Source: Deltaproteobacteria bacterium
GTDB taxonomy: Bacteria; Myxococcota; B64-G9
DNA: 61,902 nt
Reading direction: 5' to 3'
NCBI GenBank assembly: GCA_030622135.1
Contig: JAUXGL010000003.1
Coordinates: 1-61,902 of the forward strand
Both the position numbers and the translations under genes were made by a program. A model generated the notes under the pieces. It did not search any database, was not told where the DNA came from, and saw nothing but the letters and a program-made list of their open reading frames with translations. Numbering within the stretch: the first letter of the stretch is position 1; the number at the start of each line of letters is the position of its first letter. This document shows, one piece after another, positions 10,396-32,175 of the stretch.

Positions 10396-10417
10396 CGGAC
10401 GCTCCTTGAAACCTGAA

Positions 10418-11679: not shown

Positions 11680-12468
11680 ATGAACGTAGCCATGCTGCAG
11701 TTCGCGCCGGTTTTCGGGGAAGTGCAGGAAAACCTGCGGGCGATCGAGGAAGCCTGTGCGGATCTCCCAGCCGACTTGGTGGTGCTGCCGGAGTTGTGCA
11801 CCACCGGGTACCAGTTCCGGGACCGCAAGGAACTTCTAGAACTGGCCGAGCCGGCCGGCGGGCCATCTATACAGAGGCTGTCCGGCGTGGCCGCCGCCTG
11901 CGGGGGGCATCTGGTGGCGGGCTTCGCCGAAAAGGAATCCGACCTGGTGTTCAACAGCGCGGCGCTGGTAGGACCGGAAGGCGTCGTGGGCGTTTACCGC
12001 AAGATCCACCTTTTCTCCGAGGAGAAGCGGCTGTTCGAGCCGGGGAACCGAGGGTTTCCGGTTTTCCGAGCGGGCGGCATACCCATCGGCATCATGATTT
12101 GCTTTGACTGGCTCTTCCCCGAATCGGCGCGCTCGCTGGCCCTGGGAGGCGCCTGGGTAATTGCCCACGCCGCCAACCTGGTGCTGCCGTTCTGCCAGGA
12201 TGCCCTGATCACCCGGGCACTGGAAAACCGCGTGTTCATTATGAGCTGCAACCGAACCGGCCGGGAGGAACGCATCGCCGGGAAAAAGTACGAGTTCACC
12301 GGCAGAAGTCGGATGGTGGGACCGGACGGGAAAATCCTGGCCGACGGGCCGCCCGACGCCCCGGCCGTGATCACCGCCGAGATCGATCCCCGCCGGGCCG
12401 ACGACAAGAAGGTCACCTCCCTCAACCACGTCATCCGGGATCGCCGGACCGATCAGTACCGGTTGTAG
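11680..12468 (+). CDS. carbon-nitrogen hydrolase (nitrilase superfamily)
   Basis: Glu-Lys-Cys triad context: VVLPELCTTGY, VYRKIHLF, MICFDWLFPE. The start MNVAMLQFAP at 11680 was chosen over 11644. Confidence 0.8.
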   Translation: MNVAMLQFAPVFGEVQENLRAIEEACADLPADLVVLPELCTTGYQFRDRKELLELAEPAGGPSIQRLSGVAAACGGHLVAGFAEKESDLVFNSAALVGPEGVVGVYRKIHLFSEEKRLFEPGNRGFPVFRAGGIPIGIMICFDWLFPESARSLALGGAWVIAHAANLVLPFCQDALITRALENRVFIMSCNRTGREERIAGKKYEFTGRSRMVGPDGKILADGPPDAPAVITAEIDPRRADDKKVTSLNHVIRDRRTDQYRL

Positions 12469-13748
12469 GGATTCTGGACCATGATGGTTTCGGCTCGGCC
12501 GGCGCCCACGGAGATAATGTCCACGGGTAGGTTGAGCAAATGTTCCAGGCACTCGACGTACCGCCGGGCCTGGAGGGGAAGATCCGCCTTGGTTCGGCCT
12601 TCCCCGAGATCTTCCTCCCAGCCCTCGAACTCCTCGTAAATCGGCTCCACCCGAGAAAAATCACGGATGTTGGCGGGCGGCGAGGTCAGCTCTTGCCCGG
12701 CGAGCTTGTACCCCACCCCGATGCGGATGGGATTGATTCCGCTCAGAACGTCCAGCTTGGTGATACACAGCGAGGTCAGCCCGTTTATGGCGGCGGTGTA
12801 CCGCAGAGCCACCAGATCCAGCCACCCGCATCGCCGGGACCTTCCGGTGGTCGCTCCGTATTCGCCACCGGCCTCGCGGAGCTTGTCGCCCAGTTCATCC
12901 TTCAACTCGGTGGGGAAGGGCCCCGCGCCGACGCGGGTGGTGTACGCCTTGGCTACGCCCACCACACCATCTACCCGCTTGGGCCCGAATCCGACCAGCG
13001 GACAAACCGCGCCGGCCGAAGTGCTGGACGAAGTGACGAACGGATAGGTGCCGTGGTCGATGTCCAGCAATGTGCCCTGGGCACCCTCGAAGAGAACGTT
13101 CTTGCCCCGATCCATCTCCTGCCGGACAACCTCCCCCACGTCGCCCACGTACGGAGCCAGGCAGGCGGAGAGCTCCGCCAGGCGGGGAAGGATGTCCTCC
13201 GCCTGCACGGTATCCCGGCCGTAATGCGACAGTAGGGCGTTGACTTCCGGCAGCTTGACTGACAGGCGCTCCGCCAACACCTCGGAGTCGAGCAGATCAC
13301 TCAGGCGAATGCCGGTGCGGGCCGCCTTGTCCTCCAGGCAGGGACCGATCCCCCGCAGGGTGGTGCCGATCTTCTTCGAACCCCGGGCCGCTTCCCGAGC
13401 CGCGTCCAGCAAGCGATGGTAAGGCATCACCAGGTGCGCGCGGTGGCTGATTACCAACACATCGGGACTCACCTGGATGCCTCGCTGGGAGATGGCGTCG
13501 ATCTCCTCCACCAATGTCTCCGGGTCCACCACCACCGCCGGGCCGATGGCGCACCGCTTGGTCGGATGCAGGATGCCCGAGGGAACCAGATGGGTAATCA
13601 GCTGCTTCCCATCCACGATGAGCGTGTGTCCGGCGTTGGCTCCCCCCTGAAACCGGACCACCATATCGGCAAACTCGGCCAGGATATCGACCAGCTTACC
13701 CTTACCCTCATCGCCCCACTGAGTACCCACGACTACCAGGTTTGACAT
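12453..13748 (-). CDS. purA: adenylosuccinate synthase
   Basis: MSNLVVVGTQWGDEGKGKLVDILA...RFQGGANAGHT is the canonical PurA N-terminus. GGAGG upstream of the ATG at 13748. 431 aa. Confidence 0.95.
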   Translation of the reverse strand: MSNLVVVGTQWGDEGKGKLVDILAEFADMVVRFQGGANAGHTLIVDGKQLITHLVPSGILHPTKRCAIGPAVVVDPETLVEEIDAISQRGIQVSPDVLVISHRAHLVMPYHRLLDAAREAARGSKKIGTTLRGIGPCLEDKAARTGIRLSDLLDSEVLAERLSVKLPEVNALLSHYGRDTVQAEDILPRLAELSACLAPYVGDVGEVVRQEMDRGKNVLFEGAQGTLLDIDHGTYPFVTSSSTSAGAVCPLVGFGPKRVDGVVGVAKAYTTRVGAGPFPTELKDELGDKLREAGGEYGATTGRSRRCGWLDLVALRYTAAINGLTSLCITKLDVLSGINPIRIGVGYKLAGQELTSPPANIRDFSRVEPIYEEFEGWEEDLGEGRTKADLPLQARRYVECLEHLLNLPVDIISVGAGRAETIMVQNPYNRY

Positions 13749-18323: not shown

Positions 18324-19352
18324 TCATTCCATGCCCTCCAGCAGGCTGGAGATTTCTTCAGGTGAGGGCAACTGGCCTTTTAGCTCCTTGGGTAAACGCT
18401 TGATGGTGCGATAGGTCGCGACGCCAACGGGTTTGCGGGCATCGTGCAAGGCGTATTCGACTACCGTCCGGTTTTTTTCTTTGCAGAGTATGATGCCGAT
18501 GGATGGGTTTTCGTCTTCCATGCGCACCTGGCGGTCGAGGGCGGCGAGGTAGAATTGCATCTTGCCCACGAACTCGGGCTGGAACTTGCCGATCTTGAGC
18601 TCGATGGCGACCAGGGCCTTCAAGCGGCGGTGGTATAGCAACAAGTCAATGAAGTATTCGTCGCCGTCCACCTCCAGCCGAAACTGGCTGCCCACGAAGG
18701 CAAACAACCCACCCATGGTGCGAAGGAAATCCTCGATACGGGCAATGAGTGCGCGTTCTAGCTCGCGCTCGGAATGTTCCTCGCCAAGTTCCAGAAAATC
18801 GAAGGTGTATTCGTCCTTGACGGCAAGTTTTGCCTGCGCTTGAAGCTCCGGGGTGAGAGCCTGGTCGAAATTGGTCTGGCCGAGCAGTGTCTTCTCGTAG
18901 CTTTGGTTTTCAACCTGATGCAGCAGGACATTCCTGGACCACCCGAATTTGCGGGTCATGCGGAGGTAGAACTCCCGTTCCTGCGGGTCTGAACAACGCT
19001 GCAAAATAACGAGATTGTGGCTCCAGCCGATTTCTCGCACAAGCAGTGCGAGTTTTTCAGAATCTGTGTACGCTTCGAAAAAGGCCTTCATGCGCCAGAG
19101 GTTGGAGGTGGAAAAACCGCCAACTCCGGGGAATTCAGTTCGCAAATCCTTGGCCAGTTGTTGAACAACCGACTTGCCCCATGTATCTCCGGCCTGCCGC
19201 TCCAGGATCAGCTTGCCGATATCCCAATACAGGCCGACCAGCTCGTTGTTGACCATCTTGAGAGCTTGATACTGGGCGGCACGGACTCGCTCTTTGATCT
19301 CGATCAGCAGGCCTGCGTAGTCTGCGGGAAGCTGGAGTGAGTTTTTGCTCAT
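18324..19352 (-). CDS. DUF1016/YhcG-family PD-(D/E)xK nuclease
   Basis: 342 aa from the ATG at 19352. Family-typical LVGLYWDIG, GFS.SNLWRMKAFF, SWSHNLVIL, and the core FIDLLLYHRRLKALVAIELKIGKF. ATGA overlap with the upstream gene. Confidence 0.85.
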   Translation of the reverse strand: MSKNSLQLPADYAGLLIEIKERVRAAQYQALKMVNNELVGLYWDIGKLILERQAGDTWGKSVVQQLAKDLRTEFPGVGGFSTSNLWRMKAFFEAYTDSEKLALLVREIGWSHNLVILQRCSDPQEREFYLRMTRKFGWSRNVLLHQVENQSYEKTLLGQTNFDQALTPELQAQAKLAVKDEYTFDFLELGEEHSERELERALIARIEDFLRTMGGLFAFVGSQFRLEVDGDEYFIDLLLYHRRLKALVAIELKIGKFQPEFVGKMQFYLAALDRQVRMEDENPSIGIILCKEKNRTVVEYALHDARKPVGVATYRTIKRLPKELKGQLPSPEEISSLLEGME

Positions 19353-19810
19353 CCCACCAACTCCTCGAAGTTGGCGGTGATGGTCTTCGCCAGTTCCGTC
19401 GCTTCCTCGCGGGCGTGGTCGATGACGCGGATCGTGAGCTTCTGCACCTCGTTGATCTGTTTTCGTAGCGAGGCGAAACGGGTAACAAAGGGCAAGAAGC
19501 TCTCGTGGAGTGCCCGCTGCTGGGCGTTGGTTGTCTTGGTGCCCGCGCCTTTCTTGCCGGCCCAAGTCTGCAAGTCCTTGAACAGCGTAATTCGCTCGGA
19601 CGTGAAGGTGACGATCGTTTCGGTTCGCTTCTTCTGGATAGCCTTGAAGTAGAACACCGCGACATCATCGACCCCGTCAGCAGGGTCGTGCTCAAGTACA
19701 ACACGCTGAACCTTGGAGCCTTCTCTGAGAAGCTCTGCGGCTTGGCGCCAGAAGAACAGACCCTGGTAAACATCGCCTTCCGTACGTGAACCTACCTGTC
19801 CGAGCGCCAT
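19349..19810 (-). CDS. small DUF4297-like PD-(D/E)xK nuclease-domain protein
   Basis: 153 aa. EGDVYQGLFFWRQAAELL...VVLEHDPADGVDDVAVFYFKAIQKK resembles the N-terminal nuclease core of DUF4297/Cap4-type endonucleases. The TGATG junction overlaps the upstream stop by 1 nt. Confidence 0.5.
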   Translation of the reverse strand: MALGQVGSRTEGDVYQGLFFWRQAAELLREGSKVQRVVLEHDPADGVDDVAVFYFKAIQKKRTETIVTFTSERITLFKDLQTWAGKKGAGTKTTNAQQRALHESFLPFVTRFASLRKQINEVQKLTIRVIDHAREEATELAKTITANFEELVG

Positions 19811-21405
19811 CACGCACCTCCTGTCGGAAGCTCTTCGGCCAGGCGCGCGAAGAGCTCGATGCAGGCAAAGCAAATCGATGCGGCGTAGGCCGTGGTCAGC
19901 TTGTCCTCGAGGTGTTGACCCAGATCGCCGGCGCTCTTGACGTGCTCGACGAGAATGTAGCTCGACCGCGTGACATGCTTGGCGACCGTGGGTAGGTTGC
20001 CGTACCCACCTGTAATCTCCCGGAGGACCGCACACTGTTGTCCGTCTTGCTTCGGGAACACTCGTTGCGTGCGTTCGATCGGCTTGACCCCGTCCTTCTC
20101 TTCGCCTTTCCAGGTGTCGATCCAGGACTGCGGCCACTTACCAGCATCCAGCTCTGCATCCCAGATGAGCTCAAGCGCCCGACGCGAGATGAGCCGGATC
20201 GAGTTGAGTGTCTCCGCTGGTCCCACCGCCAGCTCCCGGGTGGCTCGCTCGACATAGCCTCGAAGCTTCGCGTCCCCCCCAGGCACTTGCGCCAGTCGGA
20301 GTTCGAGAACTCGTTGGATCTGTTTGGCGTACAGGTCTTCTGTCAGAAACAGCCTCTTGAGCTCGACCGCTTCACTACCATGGCGGAGTGCCATCTTCTC
20401 CATGAAGCGGCAGTTCAGCTTGGGCTTCCTGCTCGGCGTGAGAAAGCCACGCTGGGCGCCAAACAGAGCACGGTCCTGCGGAATCGAATCCGCAGCGGGT
20501 TGTTTGGCGGCGAGCGCATGAAGGTCTCCGCGCACCTCGATCGGGCAGTCATCCCACAGGTGTTGGAGCAGTGCGTAGGCGCCGCCGGCGATGGCCTCCG
20601 CTTTCTCGTTCACTGCTTGTCCATCGATTTTCGAGCCGGAGCCAGCGGTTTCAACGAGACCACGGCACAAAAGGGCAACCAGAGCTGGGTGACCACCGGA
20701 CCAGTTGAAGATCTCCTTGCGCGCCGACGTGGCAAGATTCTCGACGTGAGCGGCGAGCGGAGCCAGGACCATGTCCTGTTCGTTCTCTTCGAATGGCTCC
20801 AGCACAACCACGGGATCTGCAAAGATGTTCCAGAACTCCGAAGCCAGCGAGTCGGGGTTGTTGCAGAGATCCTGAATTCGACGCCTTGTTCCTGTCACAA
20901 AGGTGCATGACGACTTCAACCCGATTTCACGTAGATAGTCCCAGAGGTTACGGCTGATCGTCGGAGAGCTGAGGACGTGATCGAGCCCGTCCATGATCAC
21001 CAGAAGCCGACCGGTGTCAGTGAGGTAGTCGAAGACCCCCGCCAGCACCTGCGGGAGATCCTCTTCGGTTGTTTCGAGGTCGATCAGTTCAGCGGATTCA
21101 TCGTTCGCATTCTTCAGAGCCGCGTGCACTTCATCGAGGAGTCTTTGACGAAACTCGTGATCCGTTCGAGGCGTATGGTAACGCAGGTCTAGAAAGGCCG
21201 ACGTAACATAGCCGCCGCGCTCAGGACCCACGACGCCGGCGAGATGGTGGAGGAAAGTGGTCTTGCCGATGTACGGCGCTCCAACCATGGAGATGTGGTC
21301 GCCTGTCGCCTTGCCGATTCTGCTCAGGACTGCATTCAGCACCTTCTGACGGCCGAGCATAGGTACCTGAGGAGCATTGGCCAGCGGGTAGAGGTCTTTG
21401 GTCAT
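19810..21405 (-). CDS. NACHT-like STAND P-loop NTPase with helical C-terminal domain
   Basis: 531 aa from the ATG at 21405 (ATGA overlap with the upstream gene). Walker A GAPYIGKTT and Walker B LLVIMDGLDHV (NACHT-style DGLD), followed by a helical C-terminal region. Confidence 0.7.
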   Translation of the reverse strand: MTKDLYPLANAPQVPMLGRQKVLNAVLSRIGKATGDHISMVGAPYIGKTTFLHHLAGVVGPERGGYVTSAFLDLRYHTPRTDHEFRQRLLDEVHAALKNANDESAELIDLETTEEDLPQVLAGVFDYLTDTGRLLVIMDGLDHVLSSPTISRNLWDYLREIGLKSSCTFVTGTRRRIQDLCNNPDSLASEFWNIFADPVVVLEPFEENEQDMVLAPLAAHVENLATSARKEIFNWSGGHPALVALLCRGLVETAGSGSKIDGQAVNEKAEAIAGGAYALLQHLWDDCPIEVRGDLHALAAKQPAADSIPQDRALFGAQRGFLTPSRKPKLNCRFMEKMALRHGSEAVELKRLFLTEDLYAKQIQRVLELRLAQVPGGDAKLRGYVERATRELAVGPAETLNSIRLISRRALELIWDAELDAGKWPQSWIDTWKGEEKDGVKPIERTQRVFPKQDGQQCAVLREITGGYGNLPTVAKHVTRSSYILVEHVKSAGDLGQHLEDKLTTAYAASICFACIELFARLAEELPTGGA

Positions 21406-24400
21406 GATTCCGATCTCCCTTCCTGTACCGCGAGCTTGAGCAGCTCCCTGCGGTCGACGTTCCGCTCGATCCACAGACCCATGAGTGGGACCGTGAGCCG
21501 ATAGACATGGAAGGTGCCGTCCGGCACCTGTGAGATCAGCTCCAGCTCCCTCAGGTGATCGAGGTCATCGCGTAGGCCCTCGACGCTCACGACGTCGCCA
21601 TAGCCAAACCCGGAGCCATCACCACTTCCGCTGCCGTATCCGGAGCCATCGCCAAATCCGGAGCCATCACCGCTCCCGCTGCCGTATCCGGAGCCATCGC
21701 CGTATCCGGAGCCATCGCCGCTCCCGCTCCTGCTCCTACCGCCGAATACATCGTCATAACCGTAACCAATACGAGCGGCCTCGAGCTGGTTCTGCAGCAA
21801 ATCGAAGGTGACGGGATCCGGACCATCCTGGAGGTCGTGGCACAGTTGAAGGACGTACCGTGTGCGCTCCGAGCCAGCATAGCCCCACAGCGTGCGAAAG
21901 TGCTCATTGTCACGGATCATGTCCTCGACTGCGGCATCCACCTGCTTCTTCGAAACGTGACGGACCTCCTCCGCTACGGCCCTATCGAACACCCGAGCGC
22001 ACAGGAGTTGGATGAGGAAGGGATGACGTGCACACAGGGTGGTGATCCGCTCGATGGCGTCTGGTTGGTAGGCCAAGCGACCAGCGACAGGCTTTTGGAC
22101 AAGATCCTCCGCGGCACCTTGCGGGAGGACGGTCACGGAGATTGCGAAACCGAAACCAAACAGTACGTTCCAGTACTCCTCGCGCAGCCTTCGGATCCGT
22201 CGTGAGCCGGTGAGAATGCCTGCCATGCCGGTGTTGTTCTGGAACAGGTAGCGGATGTTCTCCGGTACCTGCGGGCTGGTGACGCCTGAGTCGATACCCT
22301 CCTGTAACTTGTCGAACTCATCGAGCATCAAGAGCAGGCGCCTCGGCGCAACGGCATCGACGGCCACGGCTACCAGCGAATCCAGCGATGTGAATGCAGC
22401 TCGCTCCCTAAACCAGGCATTCACCAGGCTGGGCAGCTTCATGTGTACAAAGGCCTTGCGCTTCTTGTCCGGCCACTGGAGCAAATCGTCGGGCGTGCCG
22501 GGGATGGGGAGTGGATATCCAGCGAGGGCACAGTCTCCCGCAAGCGCTCGGCCAATCGTCTTGAAGACCTCGTCGGTGGGAACGCCAACCTTCGTGCTGT
22601 CACCGGCCGAAGCCTGAAAAGAACAGTACACCGGGACGTGGGACGGGAGTGTATCTGGCCGTTGCAAGCTTTTGAGGATAGAGGTCTTGCCGGTCCGCCG
22701 GTTGCCTTCGAGCAGGATGACGTTCGCGACCCCGTCCTGGCTGAGATGCAGCCGCATCTTGTCGAGGATGTCTTCTCGACCGAAAAACATCTCGGGCCTA
22801 TCAACAGGGTTTCCCACGATGTAAGGGCTCGAACCCATCGCTTCGGGCTCAGTGTCCTTGGCTGCGTGGTCTTTAGCCTCGCCGAGGCTCAGGTCGACGG
22901 TGACCTCCCCCTTGACGGGCTCGAGCGTAGCTGTTGTCCCCTTCCAGGACAGCGTGGCTCGAAACGAATCATCGAGTTCATCGGGGATGCCGATCACGTA
23001 GCGCTCTTCCTGCTCTCCAAGCAGCATATCCTCAGAGATCTTGCGCAAAAGCACGGAAGGCGAAGCGCTCAAGGCTGCTTCGATCCGCAACAGGGGCGCA
23101 GAACCCGCATTGCGTACTCCGATCGTTACCGTTCGTCCAAGCTCCGGCGTCTCAAAGAGCACGCCTTGTTTCACCGTCGGGCCGGGGTCAGGCATCTCAA
23201 AGAGTACGTTTTGCCTCGAGTGGGAATTCGGATGGATCTGGAAAGCCTCGATAGCTACATCGCGTACCAGCGAGCGGCTTGCGTGGATCAACAGGAACCA
23301 TGCCGAGTCCAGCGCTCGCTCCAGACCTCGGCTGTGTGCCCGGAGGCCCTCGGGAATGGACCGGCTGGCCTCCTTCAGGGCCGTAACGACGGCCGATTGG
23401 GCGGACACTTGAATGGGCACAGCGGAGGGGGCCACCACATCGGTCGCCACACCCGCCAGACCATCAGCGATCGGATGTAGCGCACTCACCCAGCTCGAAA
23501 TCTCATCGCCGATGTGGAGCCGGATCGGATCGTCCGCCGCAGCGAGCGCACGTGTAAGCCCCTTACCGAACAGCCGGAGCACCGCGACGGGGTCTTCTTG
23601 GGTCTCCGCAGTGCGCGCGTGGGCGAGCGCGTTTCTCAGTTGGCGGACCGCCTGCACAGCGGGGTCAGATTCCAAGTAGGTAACCACCGGGTGAGTGTCT
23701 TCGGTGAGAACCAAGCGAAGCAAAGCGAGAGCGTCGCCTCCGCGATTCTCGATGGCGTCCGCGATGCGCTCCTGGATCGGGATCGGTGGGCGGGGCAGTC
23801 GGATACGCTTGAGAACCGATAGCGAGAGATGTTGAACAGCGATGCCACGGGCCTGAGACTTCATTAGCTCTTGAAGAGCTGGCGATCGCAATAGCCCACC
23901 CAGGTAACGACTGGACACACCCTGCCGCGGCCGAACGACGATGACACCGTTGGTGGCGATGCACCCGACGCTTCCATTGGTTACCGTTCCAACCCGGCCG
24001 ATGCTGCCTGAAGTGGTCACCACGAGGTCGCCCAAGCGCAACACCTGTCCCTCTTTGGCTCGCTGCACAAGCTCTTGGCGTGCGAAAAGCGATGGGGACT
24101 GCACTCGCCGTTCGTTGACATCGCGCACACGGATCAGGCCTCGGGTTTCCTCGGCTGCGTTGATGTCCTCGGTTGTCTTTGCGCGTGTGTAGCCCAAGCC
24201 GTTGCTCAGAGACGCCATCTCGCCCAAGGACACTACATCCACGTCGTCGAGCTGTTCGAGCTCTGTCAGGGTGACCTGAAGCTCTTCTTCCGCCGCAGAC
24301 GGTGCGATGAGGTTCCAGTCGTGTTCGGCAAGCTCTGACAAGCCAACAACGCGAACGGGACCGTCTGTAGATTCACCTCGGACCCAAGAGATAATCCTGT

Positions 24401-25598
24401 CGAGGTCGCGGTCCAGGTTGAGTGTCTCTCCAAGTACGTTAAGATCGACAAAGCGTACCTGCTTTGCGCTGCCGGTCTTGGAGAGCACCAACAGGGAGAT
24501 CTGAACGCCGGTGTAAGGCAGAAAAGACCCGGTGGGCAGTTGGAGAACGGCTTCGAGGTGATGGTCCTCGATCAGCCACTGCCGCAAGGCCTGTTCCGCG
24601 CCGCCACGAAAGAGAAGCCCGTTCGGCACGGCAACGACAGCTCTTCCCCCAGGACGAAGCGAAGCCATGGCGAGTTGGAGAAAGGTCGCCTCCAATGTGT
24701 TTGTCTTGAAGGGGAGATGCTCGTGTACGGTGGCTTCGCGCGGGCTGCGCTTGCCCCAGGGCGGTACCGCAACCACCACGTCGAAGCGCTGGGCATGTCC
24801 ATTTTCCAGCGGGCGCTGAAGCGCATCTCCGAGAACAAGGCCCGGGTGGTGAACGCCAGCCAGCAGAACTCGTACAAGGCCGATGAGGTGAATGGCGGGC
24901 GAGATCTCCACACCGAAAACGCTCTCTGCCTGAACGCGCTCCCATAACTCGGCAGTGTGAAACTCCGCTGATTGCTGCAACTTGTCGATGCACCGGATGA
25001 GGACCTCCCCCGAACCAAAACAAGGGTCAAAGATCCGTTCACCAGGCGCGGGCGCCGCAAGGCGTGCCATTAGCTCTGCCACCGCCGGAGGGGTCGCATA
25101 GGCTCCACTGTAACGAGACTTGGCGACAGTCTTTCGAAGCAGGTCTCCAAATATCTCGCCGGCGCGTCGCTGGTCAGCATTGGTCTCAAAGGGCAGCTCG
25201 GCCACGGCCTGTAGCAGGTCTTGGAGATCACCGTGTGAGCTGAGCGCATCTTTGATGCTTGGATGCGAAAAATCGACAGAGAGGACGTCGGGGCGTGCTT
25301 CAGCCAGGGCGGGCACGAGCTTGTCTTGGACGTAACCCGCGAGATCAGGTCCCTGCAAGCCGGACCAGGTGTCCCATGCGAGTTCACGCGGCAGCATGTG
25401 CTCGTAGTTCTCGTCGTTGAAGAGCGCGATAGCCTCGCGCTCGGCATCGATCAGGTCGACCCAGCGCAGCAGAAGCAACACCGCCAACTGCGGCAGGGTC
25501 TCGGTCCACGGGTCGACGGCGTTGCCCCTGCGGGCATCGGCCGCCGACCACAAAGCGTGGCTGAGCCTGTCTTCGATGCTGGTGGGGGTGGGCTGCAT
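21402..25598 (-). CDS. fusion protein: HsdM-like N6-adenine methylase module + single HsdS-type TRD + STAND/Arch-type ATPase + low-complexity G/S/D/Y insert
   Basis: 1398 aa from the ATG at 25598. HsdM_N-like LWSAADARRG..LLLLRW. Motif I FDPCFGSGE (25005-25031). Motif IV reads VPPW. TRD-like LGEMASL.NG..., ...ATNGVIVVRP, ...HLSLSVLKRIRLPRPPIPIQERI. FFGRE + Walker A GNRRTGKTS (22680-22706). Walker B LLLMLDEFD (22311-22337). Confidence 0.8.
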   Translation of the reverse strand: MQPTPTSIEDRLSHALWSAADARRGNAVDPWTETLPQLAVLLLLRWVDLIDAEREAIALFNDENYEHMLPRELAWDTWSGLQGPDLAGYVQDKLVPALAEARPDVLSVDFSHPSIKDALSSHGDLQDLLQAVAELPFETNADQRRAGEIFGDLLRKTVAKSRYSGAYATPPAVAELMARLAAPAPGERIFDPCFGSGEVLIRCIDKLQQSAEFHTAELWERVQAESVFGVEISPAIHLIGLVRVLLAGVHHPGLVLGDALQRPLENGHAQRFDVVVAVPPWGKRSPREATVHEHLPFKTNTLEATFLQLAMASLRPGGRAVVAVPNGLLFRGGAEQALRQWLIEDHHLEAVLQLPTGSFLPYTGVQISLLVLSKTGSAKQVRFVDLNVLGETLNLDRDLDRIISWVRGESTDGPVRVVGLSELAEHDWNLIAPSAAEEELQVTLTELEQLDDVDVVSLGEMASLSNGLGYTRAKTTEDINAAEETRGLIRVRDVNERRVQSPSLFARQELVQRAKEGQVLRLGDLVVTTSGSIGRVGTVTNGSVGCIATNGVIVVRPRQGVSSRYLGGLLRSPALQELMKSQARGIAVQHLSLSVLKRIRLPRPPIPIQERIADAIENRGGDALALLRLVLTEDTHPVVTYLESDPAVQAVRQLRNALAHARTAETQEDPVAVLRLFGKGLTRALAAADDPIRLHIGDEISSWVSALHPIADGLAGVATDVVAPSAVPIQVSAQSAVVTALKEASRSIPEGLRAHSRGLERALDSAWFLLIHASRSLVRDVAIEAFQIHPNSHSRQNVLFEMPDPGPTVKQGVLFETPELGRTVTIGVRNAGSAPLLRIEAALSASPSVLLRKISEDMLLGEQEERYVIGIPDELDDSFRATLSWKGTTATLEPVKGEVTVDLSLGEAKDHAAKDTEPEAMGSSPYIVGNPVDRPEMFFGREDILDKMRLHLSQDGVANVILLEGNRRTGKTSILKSLQRPDTLPSHVPVYCSFQASAGDSTKVGVPTDEVFKTIGRALAGDCALAGYPLPIPGTPDDLLQWPDKKRKAFVHMKLPSLVNAWFRERAAFTSLDSLVAVAVDAVAPRRLLLMLDEFDKLQEGIDSGVTSPQVPENIRYLFQNNTGMAGILTGSRRIRRLREEYWNVLFGFGFAISVTVLPQGAAEDLVQKPVAGRLAYQPDAIERITTLCARHPFLIQLLCARVFDRAVAEEVRHVSKKQVDAAVEDMIRDNEHFRTLWGYAGSERTRYVLQLCHDLQDGPDPVTFDLLQNQLEAARIGYGYDDVFGGRSRSGSGDGSGYGDGSGYGSGSGDGSGFGDGSGYGSGSGDGSGFGYGDVVSVEGLRDDLDHLRELELISQVPDGTFHVYRLTVPLMGLWIERNVDRRELLKLAVQEGRSES
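21597..21743. repeat. in-frame 48-nt tandem repeat (about 2.75 units) encoding SGSGDGSG(Y/F)GDGSGYG
   Basis: The peptide GGRSRSGSGDGSGYGDGSGYGSGSGDGSGFGDGSGYGSGSGDGSGFGYG is read directly from the ORF. The DNA shows repeating ccggagccatc(a/g)cc units. Confidence 0.85.
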
Positions 25599-25602: not shown

Positions 25603-26778
25603 TCAGAGCTCTCCCGCAAAGGCTTTGCGGAGGATGGCTGCGCGGAAAGTTGCCGAATCATCAATGCCGTACTCTTTGCAGAGCGCAGTTGACGCTCGCC
25701 AAGCCTCGTCCAAGCGCTCGATCAAGACTTGTTGCACTGCTAGTTTGGGAACTGGAATCTCGACTGACCGAAGCCTTTTTCCAGAGATCTTCACCATGCT
25801 CTGGCTACTACCCGTTGCTCTTTCTTGAATCTGTTTGCGAGTGTCAGGAAATCGCAATGTATACATTAGGTACTTAGGAAGAATGATCGCATCATTTGCG
25901 CAGAGACGAATCATCAAGTCTGGATAGATAACTCGGTCTTCGACTGCGGCCTCAGCAATAGCCGATAACCCGACGAATTCGACAGTGTTGGCGCGCGAAA
26001 TGAATACGTCGCCAATAGCAACTTGGTATTTCTTGGCAACTCCGTCATCCATTTCGACCCACTTGAACTTTGACACGTCCAGATGTGGTTCGCGTACAGA
26101 TGCCAACGTCAGGATGCGCCCTGTCCCATGATCGCCCAATGATTTGATTGACCTGCCGTTTCGACTGTCGACCAGGATGTTGTCCATGGTCATCATGTTC
26201 GTTCCGGCATCAGTCTCCGCGCGATGCAGAAAGGAGCCGAATAGCGCCTTTGCCTCATCTTCTGCCTTATTGCGCAACCTCCGCAGCTCATCCACTCGCT
26301 CCATGGCATCACGAATTCGCGTCACGATGCGCTGTTGTTCATTGAGTGGGGGAGTGGGTATCTCAATCGACTCCAACTTCCCCTTTGTTATGTGTCGCAA
26401 TCCGACCCCGCCATGGGCCAGCTCGATCATCTCATCAAGCTGGGAGTTGACCGCATGCAAGAAAAACAGTGGGAGTATTCTCTTCGGGTCAACAAGGACT
26501 TTGAAGATGTGTTGATTGAGGACGGCATTACCGCCATGCCATTGGAAACACCCAAACGACGTGCCAGGCGTGCCCGACCATGAAAGCAGAATGTCACCGC
26601 TTTCGATAATGTGCTTATCCTTGACCTCTCCATTGTAGCGATTGAACGGCTTTGATGGATTGTTGAGGTTCTGTATCCGGACGATCTTCAGTCCTTCTTT
26701 GGTCCAGTCAGATGGCTTGAAGGCTCGTCCGTTGACAAGGTCGCATAGGTCACCAATGTGGGTACGCCTCCAGTTCAT
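25603..26778 (-). CDS. hsdS: type I restriction-modification specificity subunit
   Basis: 391 aa with two TRDs separated by the conserved spacer PPLNEQQRIVTRIRDAMERVDELRRL. C-terminal conserved helix ...AILRKAFAGEL. ATGA overlap with hsdM. Confidence 0.9.
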   Translation of the reverse strand: MNWRRTHIGDLCDLVNGRAFKPSDWTKEGLKIVRIQNLNNPSKPFNRYNGEVKDKHIIESGDILLSWSGTPGTSFGCFQWHGGNAVLNQHIFKVLVDPKRILPLFFLHAVNSQLDEMIELAHGGVGLRHITKGKLESIEIPTPPLNEQQRIVTRIRDAMERVDELRRLRNKAEDEAKALFGSFLHRAETDAGTNMMTMDNILVDSRNGRSIKSLGDHGTGRILTLASVREPHLDVSKFKWVEMDDGVAKKYQVAIGDVFISRANTVEFVGLSAIAEAAVEDRVIYPDLMIRLCANDAIILPKYLMYTLRFPDTRKQIQERATGSSQSMVKISGKRLRSVEIPVPKLAVQQVLIERLDEAWRASTALCKEYGIDDSATFRAAILRKAFAGEL

Positions 26779-28295
26779 ACCTCCCCCTCCAACATCTCCT
26801 CTAACTCCCCAAGAAGCTCGAAGATCCGCTCTTCTTTCGTCTTGATGGATCGCACCAGCTCCAGCGCCGGAACGTGCTCGTAGTCGTCTTTCTTGTTGGG
26901 GTTACGAGCCGTGAGGTCCCAGCCATCTTCCTCAAAGGCAACCTCATCGAACTCGACCACCCATGAGTTGTCGCCCTCGACCTGCTTCTTCCGCTTCTTG
27001 AGAAAATCGGGGAGTTGGCTGCCCTCGATTGGTTTGCGCGTCTGCTTCAACTCGAAGCCGTCGTTGGTCAGCTCGTAGAACCAGATCTTGTTTGTGGTAG
27101 CGGCCTTCTTCGGTCGGTCAAAAAAGATGACGTTGGTCTTTACGCCGGTGTAGGGCAAGAATGCTCCGGCCGGCAGAGATAGGATGGTGTGCACCTTGAA
27201 CTGGGTTAGCAGCTTCTTGCGCACCTTGGCATCCGGACCGCCGCGAAACAGCACGCCCTCGGGAAGGATCACTCCCGCTCGTCCGCCCTTGGCCAGGTTG
27301 GTCATGATGTGCTGCAAGAAGAGGATCTCGGTCGCGGCCGACTGGATGGTGAAGTTGCCCTGGGAGTCCCGGTCCATCTTGCCGCCATAGGGCGGATTGG
27401 AGAGGATCACAGAAAAACGGCGCTGCTCGGCCACGTTGTTCTCGTGGCGCTCCAGGGTGTCGGCCAGGGCCAGCTTGGCCTTGTCGATACCGTGTAGGAT
27501 CATGTTCATGACCCCGAGCAAGTAGGAAAGCGGCTTGAGCTCGTTGCCGGCGAAGGTGTCTCTTTGAAAACGCTCGAAGTCTTCGCCGCTCATGTTGGAG
27601 TCGTGGTGCTTGATGTACTCTGCCGACTCGAAGAGAAAGCCGGCCGTCCCCATGCAGGGATCGTAAACGCGGTCACCAAGACGTGGTTTGACCACTTCGA
27701 CCATGGCCTTGACGATGTGGCGTTGGGTGTAAAACTCGCCCGCGTACCCGGCGGAGTCACCGGCAACGTCCTTGAGCAGGCGCTCGTAGATCTCCGACAG
27801 CTCGATAACGTCGGCCTGGCGGCTGAAATCGATCCGTTCGACCTGACTGACCACGCGGGCAAAGCTGCCGGGGCGCCGGCTGTGATTGCGGATCGTGCTG
27901 AAGATGCGCTGGAATTGGAGGCCAAGGGTATCGTCGCCGAGGGTCGTGAGCTTCTCGAAGAGGTCGGCGTTGACAAAACGAAAGACCTCTTCGGGAGTCT
28001 TCAGGCCTTTGACAGCCTTACTCTTGCCGGTGAGCGCGCGAGTCCACGTCGACCAACGGTACTTGCCATTGAGCCGCCTCTCATAGGGCGTGTCCTCGAA
28101 GGCGGACTCTTCTTCTCGGCGGTCCTCCGATGCCTCGAAGGCTTTCAGGAAAAATAGCCAGGAGAGTTGCTCGACGTAATTTCGCGGCTCGACACCGTCG
28201 CTGTTGAGCTGATCGCAGGCATTGTTGACCGCCTGCCGTACATTGTCGCGTCGTGCCTCGGCTCCGTTTCCTGGTTTTGTGGTCTTTGAAGTCAT
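26775..28295 (-). CDS. hsdM: type I restriction-modification DNA methyltransferase subunit
   Basis: 506 aa. HsdM_N-like YVEQLSWLFFLKAF, motif I VYDPCMGTAGFL and canonical motif IV ILSNPPYGG. Confidence 0.92.
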   Translation of the reverse strand: MTSKTTKPGNGAEARRDNVRQAVNNACDQLNSDGVEPRNYVEQLSWLFFLKAFEASEDRREEESAFEDTPYERRLNGKYRWSTWTRALTGKSKAVKGLKTPEEVFRFVNADLFEKLTTLGDDTLGLQFQRIFSTIRNHSRRPGSFARVVSQVERIDFSRQADVIELSEIYERLLKDVAGDSAGYAGEFYTQRHIVKAMVEVVKPRLGDRVYDPCMGTAGFLFESAEYIKHHDSNMSGEDFERFQRDTFAGNELKPLSYLLGVMNMILHGIDKAKLALADTLERHENNVAEQRRFSVILSNPPYGGKMDRDSQGNFTIQSAATEILFLQHIMTNLAKGGRAGVILPEGVLFRGGPDAKVRKKLLTQFKVHTILSLPAGAFLPYTGVKTNVIFFDRPKKAATTNKIWFYELTNDGFELKQTRKPIEGSQLPDFLKKRKKQVEGDNSWVVEFDEVAFEEDGWDLTARNPNKKDDYEHVPALELVRSIKTKEERIFELLGELEEMLEGEV

Positions 28296-28307: not shown

Positions 28308-30602
28308 TCATGCGCTAAGCGGAACGTAGAGATGGCGCTTGACCTCCTCGAGGTCACTGCGCAGTTGCTTGGCGTTTCCGTAGCGTCTGAGCAACTGCGT
28401 GAAGCTGCCAAAGCGACCTACGAACTGCGGGGTGCGGAACGTGCGGGCATCTTCGAGATCATCGACGCCAAACAGGGTGTAGTGGTCGAGGCAGGTCTCC
28501 CAGAATTGCAGGCGAATCCGGTCTTCCTGCGAGATGTTCTCCTCGCCGATATGCGCGAGCAGCCAGTCCTGGTCGTACTCCCAGAAGTGGGCGACACGAT
28601 CCCGTCGCTCGGGAACCCTGACCAGATCAAAGGCTACCTTTGACAAGACATCGACATCGTCCGTCTCCGGGAGGTCGAAGAAGTGGCGAAAGGCGGCTAC
28701 GTGGACATCCTGGTCACGAAGCTCAGCCCGGAGCTCCTGGCGCGTTCGCTTGTCAATCCATGCGTCCAGCAGCGCCTTGAGGTCAGGCGTTACGAGCGTT
28801 CGTATCGCGCCCTTTGATTGCTCCTTGTATTCCTCGAATGGGATCTTGCGTCCATCCGCCAGGCACACGAAGCGGCGGTTGTCAGAGAGCTCGATGGTGA
28901 CTCCCTGCTCGACCGGAATGTCTTTGGGCTCGCTTTTCTTGCGAGGTTTCTTCGCGGGCTTTCGCGACTTGTCCTGATTGGCCGGGTGGCCGTCGAACTC
29001 GGAGTCCTCGAGCGTGCTCGCGCCAGAGTAATCCCAGATCGTGAAGTAGCGCTTGTCGACCTCTGGGTCGTCGCACAATCGAGTGCCGCGACCCTTCATC
29101 TGTTTGTAGAGAATGGAGCTGCGGAGGGGGCGTACAAAGACGATGTTCTTGACGTCAGGGGCGTCGTATCCCGTGGTCAGTAGATCGACGGTGACGGCGA
29201 CGCGAGGATTTGTGCGGCCGACTTCCTGAAAGTTCCGCTCCAGCTGGTGGGAGTTCCTCTCGGCGCGGGTAATTCGCGCGGCGTATTCGGGGTCTCCGGT
29301 GATCCGTCTGAGCTCCTGCGCCATGAAAGCCGCGTGAGTGTCATTGACGCAGAAGACGATGCTCTTCTCGTTCTCGAGCCCGTACCTCTTGAGCTGAGCG
29401 TAGAGGTCTTCCGCGATCCACTTGGTGCGATCCGGCAGAGACACATCACGCTCAAAGTGTTTGGTCTCGTATCGGCGCCCATCGGGGCCGTCGTAACCCT
29501 CTTCGTCGACGTTGGTGATGCGCTGCTCGAGAAGGTAGGGCACCAGGTAGCCATCTTCGATGGCCTGTTTGAGCGAATAGGTGAAAATGGGCTCGCCGAA
29601 ATACTCATAGCTGTCCCGACGGAGTTCCTCGGGGCTAAGGTCCCGGCCCTCTTTGTAAAGCTCACGCGGAGTGGCCGTCAGGCCTAACTGGTAGGCCTTA
29701 CCAAAGTGCTCCAAGACCCCGAACCAGTCGCCAAATCCAGAGCGATGGCACTCATCGATGACGATGAGATCAAAGAAGTCGGCCTCGTAGTGTTCATAGA
29801 GCTTTTTGCCGTCCAGCTCCTCGTCGAGGTTCTGGTAGTTGGCGAAGAACACCTTACCAACTCGGTGGGTCCCGGCTTTGACAGCGTTCTTGTCAATGGT
29901 GACGCGCTCGTCCGTTGGGAAACCATTGAACGCTCGGTAGGCCTGACCCTTGAGGCTGTTGCGATCCGTGAGAAAGAGGACGTTTCCTCGTGGAAGGATA
30001 TCGGTTTGCAGGAGCTTCCACACGAGTTGAAAGACCGTGAAGGTCTTGCCCGTGCCCGTGGCCATGAGCAACAAGACCCGGCGGTTGTCTTGCGAGAACT
30101 GGTACAGCGCCTCAGTGATGGCGCGCTCTTGATACGGACGGACCTTCTTGCGCGAGATCTGATCGACGTGCCAGTCGGCAAGGAAGGCGTCATTCCAACT
30201 GCGGGGGATCATGTTGAGCCCCATATAATGGAGAACATCGCCAGGTGGAGGAGGCGTATCCTGGGTGTGGTACTCGCCAGTCTTGTTGTCAGTGACGATG
30301 TACTCGTGGCCGTTGCTCGCGATGGAGAAGCGGAGGCTCAGACGCTGTGCGTAGCGCGAGCCTTGCTGCATCCCGTCAGATGCGTCTTCGTCCTCCCTCT
30401 TCGCTTCAAGAATGGCCAGAGGCATACCATAGAGCTTGAGGACGTAGTCGGCGACGATGTGCTGATGCTCATCGTACATTCGTTCGCCGGAGAGATTCAC
30501 TCGTCCGGGGCCAATCATCACCTCACGAGACCATGTCCAGCCTGCAGCTTCGAGCGCAGGCTCGATAAGCTCTCGGCAGGTTTGGTTCTCGTTGCGGCTC
30601 AT
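28308..30602 (-). CDS. hsdR: type I restriction endonuclease subunit R
   Basis: 764 aa. N-terminal nuclease region ETCRELIEPALEAAGW...ADYVL...AILEAK. SF2 helicase motifs LLLMATGTGKT and VIDECHR. GAGGAG SD 5 nt upstream of the ATG. Confidence 0.9.
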   Translation of the reverse strand: MSRNENQTCRELIEPALEAAGWTWSREVMIGPGRVNLSGERMYDEHQHIVADYVLKLYGMPLAILEAKREDEDASDGMQQGSRYAQRLSLRFSIASNGHEYIVTDNKTGEYHTQDTPPPPGDVLHYMGLNMIPRSWNDAFLADWHVDQISRKKVRPYQERAITEALYQFSQDNRRVLLLMATGTGKTFTVFQLVWKLLQTDILPRGNVLFLTDRNSLKGQAYRAFNGFPTDERVTIDKNAVKAGTHRVGKVFFANYQNLDEELDGKKLYEHYEADFFDLIVIDECHRSGFGDWFGVLEHFGKAYQLGLTATPRELYKEGRDLSPEELRRDSYEYFGEPIFTYSLKQAIEDGYLVPYLLEQRITNVDEEGYDGPDGRRYETKHFERDVSLPDRTKWIAEDLYAQLKRYGLENEKSIVFCVNDTHAAFMAQELRRITGDPEYAARITRAERNSHQLERNFQEVGRTNPRVAVTVDLLTTGYDAPDVKNIVFVRPLRSSILYKQMKGRGTRLCDDPEVDKRYFTIWDYSGASTLEDSEFDGHPANQDKSRKPAKKPRKKSEPKDIPVEQGVTIELSDNRRFVCLADGRKIPFEEYKEQSKGAIRTLVTPDLKALLDAWIDKRTRQELRAELRDQDVHVAAFRHFFDLPETDDVDVLSKVAFDLVRVPERRDRVAHFWEYDQDWLLAHIGEENISQEDRIRLQFWETCLDHYTLFGVDDLEDARTFRTPQFVGRFGSFTQLLRRYGNAKQLRSDLEEVKRHLYVPLSA

Positions 30603-30641: not shown

Positions 30642-30657
30642 TGCAGATGTCGTGCCA
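30642..30657 (-). promoter_or_regulatory. sigma-54 (-24/-12) promoter driving hsdR and the downstream operon
   Basis: The minus strand reads TGA-TGGCACG-ACAT-CTGCA, against the consensus TGGCACG-N4-TTGCW. It starts immediately after the activator gene's stop and lies about 40 nt upstream of the hsdR ATG. Confidence 0.75.
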
Positions 30658-32175
30658 TCATCTCTCCACCCCATATTTCTTGAGCCAGTTCGTTAGCGTC
30701 TGATAGCTCGGGAGGCCCACCAGCTCGGCGGCCTTGGTCTTGTTTCCGCTCGCCTCATCGATGGCGCGCCCCAGATAATGCCTGGCTATTTCTGTTAGTA
30801 AATCCGGTAGGTTGAACTTGCCACCAAGCTGCCGCCCGAACGCCTCCGACCGGCTTGCGAAGCCGGAAGGGAGCAGAGCCTCTCGCGCATCTTCGACGGT
30901 GATCGTCGCGCTGTCGGACCAGATCGCTGCACGTCGGAGCGTGTTGAGCAACTCCCTGACATTGCCGGGCCAGGGATGCGAAAGCATAAGATTTCTTGCC
31001 CCAGCGGAAAGTTTCTTGTGCTTGAACTCAGGTTCGACCATAGCCTCTTCATTCACCTGCTGGAGAAGTCGGTCGATGAGTAGTCCAAGGTCGCCAGCGC
31101 GATCGCGAAGCGGTGGGATATTCAGGACGGCAACCGCCAGTCGGTAAAAGAGGTCTTCACGGAAGCGGCCGGCTGCAATCTCCTCGGTGAGGGTCCTATT
31201 CGTCGCGGCAATGATGCGGACGTTGACCTTGGCGGCTTTGGTCGACCCGAGACGAACAACCTCTCCCTCTTGGATGACCCGGAGCAGCTTCACCTGGGCC
31301 GAACCGGGCAGATCCCCGAGTTCATCGAGAAACAGGGTCCCGGTGTTCGCAGCCTCGAAGTAGCCCTTCCGCGGTTCATTCGCGCCAGTAAACGCTCCCT
31401 TCTCGTGCCCAAAGAGCTCTGACTCCACGAGGTCGTCGGGTATTGCCCCGCAGTTGACCGCTACGAACGGCGCCTGGCTCCGAGTGCTCGCCTGATGGAT
31501 CGCGCGCGCGATCATCTCCTTGCCTGTTCCTGACTCTCCCTCGATCAAGACGGGTACGTTGCGAACCGCTACTCGCCGCGCTCGTTGGATGAGTCGGTCC
31601 ATCACCCGGCTTCGATAGATGATATCGGCGAACTCGGGCGCCTCAGGCGACTCGGCGCCGCTCAGCTCCCGCAAGCGTTCATCGCGTTCGCGGAGCAGAT
31701 CTGGCAGGAAGTCGACGGCGATATCGAACGGGACCTCGGCGGTGCGCACGCCATGGTCCCTTGAAGACTCAATCAGCTCTGCCGGGAACCGTGTCTTGGC
31801 GAGTAGTATCCAGACCGCCGCCATCGCCGGCGTGCCCGGGCTCAAGTGGAAGCTGAGCGAGGCCTCTTTCGCGCGTCCGTCCAGAGCTGCGCTGATCGTG
31901 CGGACGGCAGCCTTGTAGATCTCCCCAAAGTTAGTCGGGCCAGAACGCGGCTCGAATTGTAGGTCGATCTTTGCTGCCGTTCGAGCCCGCACCCACGCGG
32001 CGTAGGGTTTGACCTCCGCCTTGGGATAATCGTGAAGAAGAATGATGCGGTCGAACGCAAGCGCATCCACTGCCTGAGCAATGGGCCCGACTCCGACCGT
32101 CTCCTCCTCCGTTCGTGCGCGGAGATCCGTTCGGCCGACCCAGCTGACAAGAACCTTCTCCATGCCGAAAGACAT
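30658..32175 (-). CDS. RtcR-family sigma-54-dependent transcriptional activator (CARF-type N-domain + AAA+ + Fis-type HTH)
   Basis: The N-domain [32 protein letters not shown] parallels E. coli RtcR's YLIHITTGTHVAQICWFLLAEARYLPARLIQSS. AAA+ motifs GESGTGKE, the GAFTGA loop and FLDELGDL. C-terminal [26 protein letters not shown]. Confidence 0.85.

Follow-up and report, generated by a model that had tools for sequence, protein, structure and literature searches.

What does a locus that encodes a complete type I restriction-modification (R-M) system gain from a second, covalently fused methylase and specificity module that is tethered to an ATPase? This question is raised by a 61,902-nt stretch of DNA from a Deltaproteobacteria bacterium (contig JAUXGL010000003.1 of assembly GCA_030622135.1), the whole of which is called the window here. 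Directly behind hsdS, the window carries a 1398-aa fusion gene, designated C0 (21402..25598, ATG at 25598, stop codon at 21402-21404), followed by a gene for a 531-aa partner nucleoside triphosphatase (NTPase), designated C1 (19810..21405). An earlier sequence-only reading had placed C0 at the same coordinates and left the strand unstated; C0, C1 and all the operon genes and protein features located below lie on the minus strand. We propose, as a reading that is plausible but short of probable, that C0 and C1 together constitute a non-methylating reader coupled to an ATP switch, which forms the distal module of an inducible defence operon.

From the N- to the C-terminus, C0 consists of an HsdM, half of an HsdS, a helical bundle, a β-sandwich, an ORC/Cdc6-like AAA+ ATPase and a winged helix. 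A profile of 85 members matched the solved HsdM 5ybb_A at positions 6-446 (E=3.7e-90), and the same profile matched the EcoKI HsdS (2y7c_A) at positions 464-628 (E=1.8e-21). Therefore, the N-terminal half of C0 corresponds to a whole HsdM, N-terminal domain included, plus half of an HsdS. Pfam, PADLOC, profile and AlphaFold analyses agreed with the sequence-only reading that an HsdM, a target-recognition domain (TRD) and an ATPase are fused in one open reading frame (ORF), and in that order. A longer, TTG-initiated version of C0 (21402-25664) is not needed, because the homologues start at a methionine equivalent to the annotated one, whose ATG lies 4 nt past the hsdS stop codon (25603-25605). 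No nuclease family was found in C0 in Pfam, PADLOC or NCBIfam, and its folded regions are otherwise accounted for.

The methylase head retains its fold and its cofactor motifs, and appears to have lost its catalytic residue. It comprises an HsdM N-terminal-like helical domain (residues 1-145; 25164..25598), which is matched by 5ybb_A from position 6 and aligns with the neighbouring HsdM from residue 10, and a γ-class N6-adenine methyltransferase (MTase) fold (residues 146-435; 24294..25163), which matches Pfam N6_Mtase over residues 147-434 (E=1.6e-40). The helix bundle, the γ-class fold and motif I for S-adenosylmethionine (SAM) binding (FDPCFGSG, residues 190-197; 25008-25031) were all present as first read. 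Among the 85 aligned C0 members, P192, C193 and G195 are invariant, D191 is kept in 84 and F194 in 82; in addition, the motif II glutamate (E231 in C0) is kept in 83, and motif III is D or N. The part of the first reading that did not stand is the intact, functional methylase: motif IV (residues 278-281; 24756-24767) reads VPPW, with the catalytic N/D lost (VVVAVPPWG in context, versus SNPPYG in the adjoining canonical HsdM, to which the head is 28% identical).

Motif IV of N6-adenine MTases is (D/N/S)PP(Y/F/W), the first residue of which forms a hydrogen bond to the target amino group. Methyl transfer would therefore be expected to be abolished by V or A at this position. In the 85 sequences the first residue is V in 47, A in 11, S in 3, T in 1 and another residue in 1, with N in 12 and D in 10; about 74% of the C0 homologues thus lack N/D and show V, A, S, T, C or H instead, and some lack the aromatic residue too (PPI; HPPV in Acinetobacter). 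Furthermore, when mapped onto a neighbour-joining tree built from the ATPase domain, N/D is gained or lost at least five times. Together with the retention of the SAM motifs, this suggested that catalysis has been lost repeatedly while SAM binding was retained. Judged from the loss of motif IV beside invariant SAM motifs, the C0 methylase is best described as a predicted SAM-binding pseudo-enzyme.

Downstream of the methylase, residues 455-640 (23679..24236) form the single HsdS-type TRD and conserved-region helix that had been recognized from the sequence. This assignment is supported by Pfam Methylase_S (residues 515-618, E=3e-8), by PADLOC Specificity_I (residues 454-618, E=6e-16) and by the match to the EcoKI S subunit; a full HsdS subunit has two TRDs and two conserved regions, versus the one TRD of C0. 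Mean pairwise identities across loci were 25% for the HsdM_N-like domain of C0, 41% for the MTase, 36% for the TRD, 25% for the helical bundle, 32% for the β-sandwich, 57% for the AAA+ domain and 53% for its lid. For the co-operonic type I system the corresponding values were 70% for HsdR, 62-69% for HsdM and 24-28% for the HsdS TRDs. The C0 TRD thus seems to keep pace with the rest of the head, whereas the neighbouring R-M system combines a conserved enzyme with hypervariable TRDs. These two features, VPPW and a TRD that is not hypervariable, bear out the earlier suggestion that the fused module is no ordinary modification subunit. The possibility that the C0 TRD is a copy of the neighbouring HsdS TRD and shares its target was rejected, since same-locus pairs averaged 34 bits and pairs with other loci 32 bits; in the window, the best match of the C0 TRD to the HsdS TRD of its own locus has 23% identity.

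These comparisons also bear on the possibility that C0 is a second active MTase, either an orphan or a type IIG or type I-like enzyme, whose ATPase tail regulates or assists modification, which would make it an ordinary R-M variant. The VPPW of the window falls outside the motif IV consensus, most of the family shares the lack of N/D and in part that of the aromatic residue, and the TRD does not diversify as in R-M systems. The database name 'N-6 DNA methylase' and the intact motifs I-III would fit an active enzyme, as would the 22 of 85 relatives that keep N/DPPW or N/DPPF, mostly in R-M-linked loci, and the reported activity of engineered HsdM-HsdS fusions (PMC3510504). On balance, an active methylase is considered very unlikely for C0.

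The sequence-only reading had itself named a way in which the fusion could be spurious, namely that a frameshift in sequencing or a misassembly had run two genes together; a join of two or three genes was considered here. A word-indexed search with C0 returned 152 matches at E≤1e-5, the best 120 of which were nearly all 1200-1480 aa long with the same Pfam content. The named sources among the matches listed are Gemmatimonadota, Nostoc, Mesoterricola, Phycisphaeraceae and Alphaproteobacteria, and the annotations are 'N-6 DNA methylase' or 'type I restriction enzyme M protein', the former being used in GenBank. With the C0 ATPase region, an exhaustive hidden Markov model search reached 1315 representatives of 50%-identity clusters (E≤1e-30). 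Most of the top 150 were about 1300 aa long with the ATPase at about residue 880-1250, and about a quarter of the 150 were shorter and are probably fragments. Moreover, 124 C0 loci were confirmed when one genome per species was scanned, and 80 of them were taken for locus analysis. The loci come from Acidobacteriota, Binatia, Gamma- and Betaproteobacteria, Gemmatimonadota, Planctomycetota, Cyanobacteria, Desulfobacterota, Myxococcota, Latescibacterota, Spirochaetia, Chloroflexota, Nitrospirales, Verrucomicrobia and Armatimonadota, and the genomic homologues of C0 represent 68 loci from at least 14 phylum-level lineages. The locus closest to the window among the 80 is that of an Acidobacteria metagenome-assembled genome (MAG), with 81% identity in the ATPase region. 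The only assembly-prone element in C0 is a 48-bp tandem repeat, which is in frame and lies inside a loop of the winged helix, and the same continuous architecture and length recur in at least 120 full-length proteins of ~1300-1400 aa, in 68 loci and in most of the best 150 of the 1315 representatives. Since the architecture is conserved in hundreds of lineages, a frameshift or assembly explanation is excluded, and the chance that the long ORF is an artefact is negligible. Two variants of the architecture were also observed (P0096/P0117), with VWA domains in a 1440-aa protein of Alphaproteobacteria and HTH_17 in a 1433-aa protein.

The C-terminal half of C0 matched no accepted family in Pfam, PADLOC (2023 release) or NCBIfam, and was assigned from an AlphaFold model of residues 640-1398 based on an 85-row alignment (mean predicted local distance difference test score [pLDDT] 84.9). 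Where a linker of about 300 aa had been supposed, the model is folded throughout: a five-helix bundle (residues 641-780; 23259..23678), which belongs to the least conserved parts of the protein, is followed by a β-sandwich domain (residues 783-905; 22884..23252; strands E144-265 of the model). The next and most conserved part is the AAA+ ATPase with its lid (residues 925-1275; 21774..22826), identified as ORC/Cdc6-like by Foldseek. It contains FFGRE at residues 938-942, a Walker A motif GNRRTGKT (residues 965-972; 22683-22706), a Walker B motif LLLMLDEFD (residues 1088-1096; 22311-22337), in which DE provides the catalytic glutamate of the hydrolysis type, and an Arg-rich box.

The earlier assignment of this domain as a STAND or Arch-type ATPase was right as to the P-loop, FFGRE and the Walker motifs, and loose as to the STAND type. 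In Foldseek searches against the Protein Data Bank (PDB), archaeal ORC2/Cdc6 and eukaryotic ORC1 ranked first (1w5t_A, E=1.5e-8; also 1w5s, 2qby and 1fnn); these top matches include the winged helix and span E values of 1e-8 to 1e-6, and Apaf-1 and plant NLRs (NRC3) ranked below them. Family matches to AAA_16 (residues 938-1100, E about 1e-4 to 2e-4) and to nSTAND6 (E=0.04) were below the Pfam cut-off, the ATPase profile gave only chance-level matches to PDB sequences, and a viral fold library gave only generic AAA+/RFC matches. In addition, neither Pfam nor the model showed in C0 any repeat domain (TPR, WD40 or LRR) of the kind that serves as a STAND sensor, and its N-terminus, where STAND proteins have an effector, is HsdM/HsdS. 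In the model, the C0 ATPase therefore appears closer to ORC/Cdc6 than to classic STAND proteins, and the STAND label is approximate.

The C-terminal end of C0 is the winged helix, whose C-terminal part (residues ~1336-1398; 21405..21593) was predicted as a helix-strand-strand-helix unit with pLDDT above 90. It is split by a G/S/D/Y low-complexity insertion (residues 1287-1335; 21594..21740), which is disordered in the model and arises from the 48-bp tandem repeat (2.8 copies, 21597-21728). The interruption had thus been read correctly for the window; as a family feature it does not stand, being a private insertion of this C0. The repeat-bearing segment measures 91 aa here versus 33-34 aa in all 67 other genomic homologues, and one metagenomic relative (P0003) has a shorter version of the insertion.

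The constant companion of C0 is C1. ORFs from 80 loci and the window were clustered and cross-checked by tblastn to avoid ORF-calling errors; a C1 gene of about 530 aa followed C0 directly and co-directionally in 75 of 79 loci. Therefore, the unit consists of two genes, C0 and C1. In the window the C1 ATG overlaps the C0 stop codon by 4 nt (ATGA), with GGAAGGGAG as ribosome-binding site. C1 is paralogous to the C0 ATPase (27% identity from Walker B to the lid), with Walker A GAPYIGKT and Walker B LLVIMDGLD; the family pattern DG[LF]D lacks the glutamate. Its model (pLDDT 87) matched ORC2/Cdc6, the Arch_ATPase PAB2304 (2qen), Avs3 and CED-4, and family scores were 8e-5 for nSTAND2 and 2e-3 for NACHT (below cut-off), with a weak PADLOC match to mad8 (E=0.01).

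The C-terminal ~200 aa of C1 are all-helical, carry the conserved motif S-[VF]-G-[DN]-x-G-Q-H (19912-19929 in the window) and have no sequence match in the PDB. A HEPN/DUF4145 RNase assignment for this domain was not established, as one of six members matched HEPN_Swt1, at a sub-threshold E of 0.13; this homologue (L072) has RNRVQH (R-x4-H) at the motif and is the only one of the six with that sequence and that match. The domain may possibly be a divergent or inactivated HEPN-like domain. A conserved third gene for a nuclease was also considered and rejected, since ORFs downstream of C1 do not cluster across loci. The window has a 153-aa ORF at that position (19349-19810), whose ATG overlaps the C1 stop codon (TGATG) and which overlaps the start region of a downstream YhcG ORF; it belongs to no Pfam family, is not conserved after C1 elsewhere, and may be what remains of a gene, or a small gene specific to this lineage.

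The genetic setting suggests how the module is expressed. Upstream of C0 lie hsdR (28308..30602; Pfam ResIII, EcoEI_R_C and HSDR_N; PADLOC REase_I, E=6e-92), hsdM with an NPPY motif IV (26775..28295) and hsdS with two TRDs (25603..26778), the canonical HsdM and HsdS that had been read at this locus standing directly before C0. The genes are tightly packed, with overlaps of 4 nt for hsdM/hsdS and for C0/C1 and a gap of 4 nt between hsdS and C0. They are preceded by a gene for an RtcR-like enhancer-binding protein (EBP) with CARF, σ54 AAA+ and Fis-type helix-turn-helix (HTH) domains (30658..32175), which matches PADLOC RtcR_PspF2--CARF_AAA_HTH over its full length (8.7e-200) and Pfam Sigma54_activat (2.4e-71) and has GAFTGA at residue 260 (31381-31398). 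A predicted σ54 -24/-12 promoter, TGGCACGACATCTGCA (30642..30657), lies right after the EBP stop codon, the two sharing 2 nt in TGATGG, and precedes the hsdR ATG by 39 nt. The motif occurs twice in the window versus 0.07 times expected. The second perfect -24/-12 motif, TGGCACCGTTGTTGCT (61267-61282, plus strand), is found close to the window's far end; the gene under its control would sit near or beyond the edge. Its presence suggests that the organism uses σ54 elsewhere too.

A strict σ54 motif was found in the same slot in 27 of 43 EBP-bearing loci, usually 3-13 nt past the last EBP residue, whether the next gene is hsdR or C0 (C0 in 17 EBP-C0(-C1) loci). Moreover, of the 36 coding-strand σ54 matches in 1.5 Mb of related loci, 27 lie in the short stretch immediately behind the EBP gene, which makes up 1% of the sequence, and neither σ70 promoters nor terminators rose above background inside the operon. 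Taken at sequence level, the operon hsdR-hsdM-hsdS-C0-C1 thus appears to begin at a predicted σ54 promoter after the CARF EBP gene.

The search for the same architecture and its neighbours in other genomes, which had been suggested as a check, showed that the fusion recurs across phyla with C1, and often with the EBP and a type I R-M system. Across 82 loci, 43 of which have the EBP, the arrangement EBP-hsdR-hsdM-hsdS-C0-C1 was found in 21, EBP-C0-C1 in 15 plus 2 truncated ones, hsdRMS-C0-C1 with the EBP absent or out of range in 9, and hsdR-C0-C1 lacking hsdM and hsdS in 2; 21 had nothing recognisable upstream and 12 had other partial combinations. An intact N/D in motif IV was present in 15 of 38 R-M-linked loci, in 1 of 17 loci with the EBP only and in none of 10 loci with neither. 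In the two hsdR-C0-C1 loci, hsdR is followed by a dead C0 and C1: one is L055 (AAPPWS, 5200-~13000), and the other is L081, on a 317-kb plasmid of Acinetobacter ursingii (NZ_MH220285; HPPV, 5071-12836), where the start of C0 overlaps hsdR and the Prokaryotic Genome Annotation Pipeline (PGAP) names the genes 'type I restriction endonuclease subunit R', 'N-6 DNA methylase' and 'ATP-binding protein'. This layout, which in L081 stands on a clinical megaplasmid, looks like a 'restriction-only' arrangement. In some gammaproteobacterial MAGs, an hsdR N-terminal fragment or a half-HsdS-like ORF lies just upstream of C0 (L003, 5773-6780; L010, 6236-6973). Such fragments beside C0 suggest that the linked type I system decays while C0-C1 is kept.

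The hsdR-C0-C1 loci raise the possibility that HsdR uses C0 as an alternative targeting core that does not modify DNA, with a dimer, (C0)2, standing in for M2S1 and directing the type I motor-nuclease to a conserved target. The result would be an arm that only restricts, perhaps with suicidal or abortive effect, and that the cell could tolerate only because the operon is silent under normal conditions; C1 and the AAA+ domain would gate the hand-over. The presence in C0 of a whole HsdM with its N-terminal domain and of a half-HsdS is consistent with such a core, and so is the same conserved HsdR lineage (70% identity across phyla) just upstream in about 38 of the 82 loci. However, about 27 untruncated loci, with EBP-C0-C1 or with C0-C1 alone, have no hsdR within ~7 kb, almost all of them with a dead motif IV, so the module must be able to work without a linked HsdR. 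We therefore regard a dedicated HsdR-targeting function as unlikely.

The repeated loss of catalysis next to invariant SAM motifs could also be explained if C0 were an integrated decoy or guard. Ocr and ArdA DNA mimics and SAM-degrading enzymes attack type I R-M and BREX systems; the dead M·S head would mimic the target of these agents, and inhibitor binding or loss of SAM would flip the switch and trigger C1. PrrC guarding EcoprrI, PARIS sensing Ocr and plant NLRs with integrated decoys are precedents. A non-diversifying TRD is expected if sequence specificity is irrelevant, C0 stands directly after hsdS in many loci, and STAND relatives such as Avs3 are among the structural matches of C1. 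Against this, the head, at 28% identity to the neighbouring HsdM, is a poor mimic at the sequence level, half of the loci have no linked R-M system, and members with intact N/DPPW exist. We therefore regard a decoy function, too, as unlikely.

Returning to the proposed reader and ATP switch: because the methylase is usually dead and C1 is a constant partner in a predicted stress-inducible operon, the pair is probably a new sensor of DNA or of anti-restriction, and no ordinary methylase. In the mechanism envisaged, the CARF activator would sense a nucleotide-type signal of infection or stress, by analogy with RtcR (PMC7790460) cyclic-phosphate RNA ends; the same induction logic has been proposed for RtcR-homologue superoperons (PMC11090510). 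Once triggered, the activator would turn on the operon. Truncated HsdS proteins dimerise, and C0 may dimerise via its half-HsdS helix, (C0)2 mimicking the M2S1 core. This dimer would bind DNA and flip a base into the SAM-loaded, inert pocket with no methylation, acting as a reader and not a writer. Target engagement would then be passed to the ORC/Cdc6-type AAA+ domain, leading to an ATP-dependent, ORC-like assembly with C1 on DNA. The output could be a BREX-like interference with foreign DNA that involves no cleavage, or a hand-over to an effector, either HsdR where present or the C-terminal helical domain of C1; the hsdR-C0-C1 loci support HsdR recruitment as an output. The surroundings are those of defence genes, with type I R-M genes and a YhcG/PDC-S02 gene nearby in the window and GHKL/NOV_C giants in several related loci.

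Several points weigh against this reading. DNA binding, dimerisation, SAM binding and the C0-C1 interaction are properties that we infer, and the defence role of the family members is putative. Pfam and PADLOC revealed no effector domain, either in the C-terminal half of C0 or in the domain that ends C1. Since roughly one in four family members retains N/DPPW and may methylate, a reader-only function cannot hold family-wide. Furthermore, no C0 homologue was found in 50,697 phage genome records, a result that is uninformative either way.

A more far-reaching proposal is that C0-C1 represents a new class of immune sensor, in which a pseudo-enzyme M·S core is hard-wired to an ORC-like switch and acts either as a reader of DNA modification or foreignness or as an anti-restriction decoy, in a feed-forward loop with the CARF activator, and in which the C1 C-terminal domain may be a divergent HEPN-like RNase that makes the cyclic-phosphate RNA signal. 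This is speculative, and we consider it rather unlikely. If the reader version were true, it would mean a methylation-independent, signal-induced restriction, via HsdR where present or by a BREX-like block; the decoy version would mean detection of phage anti-restriction weapons, either DNA mimics or SAM depletion.

Comparison with known systems places C0-C1 between several of them. Like the type I R-M core (HsdM2-HsdS1), C0 has a complete HsdM fold and a TRD with the conserved helix and sits in a type I operon; unlike it, C0 is a single chain with one TRD that is not hypervariable, has VPPW, and bears an extension of ~760 aa with an AAA+ domain. In BREX, the MTase-TRD protein PglX/BrxX has two partners, an ATPase of the ORC/Cdc6 clade (BrxC/DUF499) and the STAND-like BrxB (PMC12839542). 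C0-C1 likewise pairs an HsdM-like MTase-TRD with an ORC/Cdc6 AAA+ domain and a second, STAND-like NTPase, has no obvious nuclease and occurs in a defence-island context; it differs in joining methylase and ATPase in a single chain, in having a methylase that is dead in most members and in its predicted σ54-dependent regulation. PADLOC found no PglZ, BrxL, BrxA, BrxC or DUF499 match for C1 or the C-terminal half of C0, no BREX component turned up among the locus genes, and the NCBIfam PglX match of C0 reached only E=0.004. By analogy, C0-C1 would thus work most like BREX, yet it fails BREX membership.

The regulatory layout resembles that of RtcR-homologue superoperons, with the same RtcR_PspF2 regulator family and with EBP, type I R-M and a terminal module in one direction. 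The grammar of CARF-EBP, type I R-M and terminal module has been described for CoCoNuT superoperons (PMC11090510), and RtcR/PspF-like proteins beside R-M systems had been noted earlier (PMC4012209). Here, unlike there, the terminal module is C0-C1 and not a McrBC-type CoCoNuT, and both the predicted σ54 promoter and its constant placement at the EBP stop codon can be read directly from the DNA sequence. Type ISP enzymes (LlaGI/LlaBIII) and type IIG enzymes also have methylase and TRD in one polypeptide, with an NTPase in type ISP. However, in type ISP an active methylase is preceded by an Mrr nuclease and an SF2 helicase motor, whereas C0 has no nuclease, carries an AAA+ domain in place of SF2, on the C-terminal side, and has a dead methylase. 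Finally, STAND/Avs sensors and hsd-embedded guards (PrrC-EcoprrI) share with C0 the tethering of a sensor domain to a switch NTPase inside a type I operon, and Avs3, CED-4 and Apaf-1 are among the structural matches of C0/C1. C0 differs from them in that its best matches are ORC/Cdc6, its Walker B has DE, and it shows neither a repeat-type sensor nor a recognised effector.

The earlier statement that such a fusion is undescribed holds in the literature searched, where no paper naming or studying the C0 fusion or C1 was found, with the caveat that one C0 member, from Desulfococcus oleovorans (gi 158521274; COG0286+COG0732+COG1672), is among the PspF/RtcR-like neighbourhoods tabulated, with no comment, in the supplement of a 2014 paper (PMC4012209), and that GenBank has the name 'N-6 DNA methylase'. 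C0-C1 is thus a widespread uncharacterised variant assembled from known parts. It would add an unnamed module to the bacterial immune catalogue, with more than 1300 cluster representatives, at least 14 phylum-level lineages and one clinical Acinetobacter megaplasmid. The C0 family would also offer a natural case of a DNA MTase turned repeatedly into a SAM-binding pseudo-enzyme, which bears on how base flipping is coupled to later steps in type I and BREX systems. The BREX mechanism has long been open, and a fused, minimal pair of MTase-TRD and ORC-type ATPase could be a simpler model for ATPases acting on recognised DNA. Moreover, the conserved predicted σ54 promoters are direct sequence evidence that some type I R-M operons may be inducible via CARF EBPs, and inducible type I R-M raises the question of how self DNA is protected upon induction.

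The co-operonic HsdR and HsdM of the window and about 35 loci are 62-70% identical across very distant phyla, and the EBP is 54-66% identical, which implies that the cassette spreads horizontally as a unit. The G+C content of the window dips to 0.56-0.58 over 26-30 kb versus ~0.63 in the flanks. Long HsdR variants with an N-terminal DUF4145 were rejected as over-extended ORF calls. One Spirochaetia MAG (L068) carries tandem C0-C1 modules (a C0 of 1278 aa with C1, then a C0 of 1326 aa with C1), and a σ54 motif precedes the first module by 18 nt.

Judged by the nearby genes for PurA, a TonB-dependent receptor and an OPT transporter, the window looks chromosomal. A gene for a YhcG/DUF1016 PD-(D/E)xK nuclease (18324-19565, minus strand; PADLOC PDC-S02, 2e-152) follows closely behind the operon and is outside the conserved C0-C1 module. 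In other loci, giant proteins of 1300-2600 aa are encoded directly after C1 (L024, 13056-18377; L065, 12791-20626; L004, 14154-18107). They combine an N-terminal Sacsin/GHKL ATPase with NOV_C or ResIII helicase domains and are probably further defence genes of the same superoperon.

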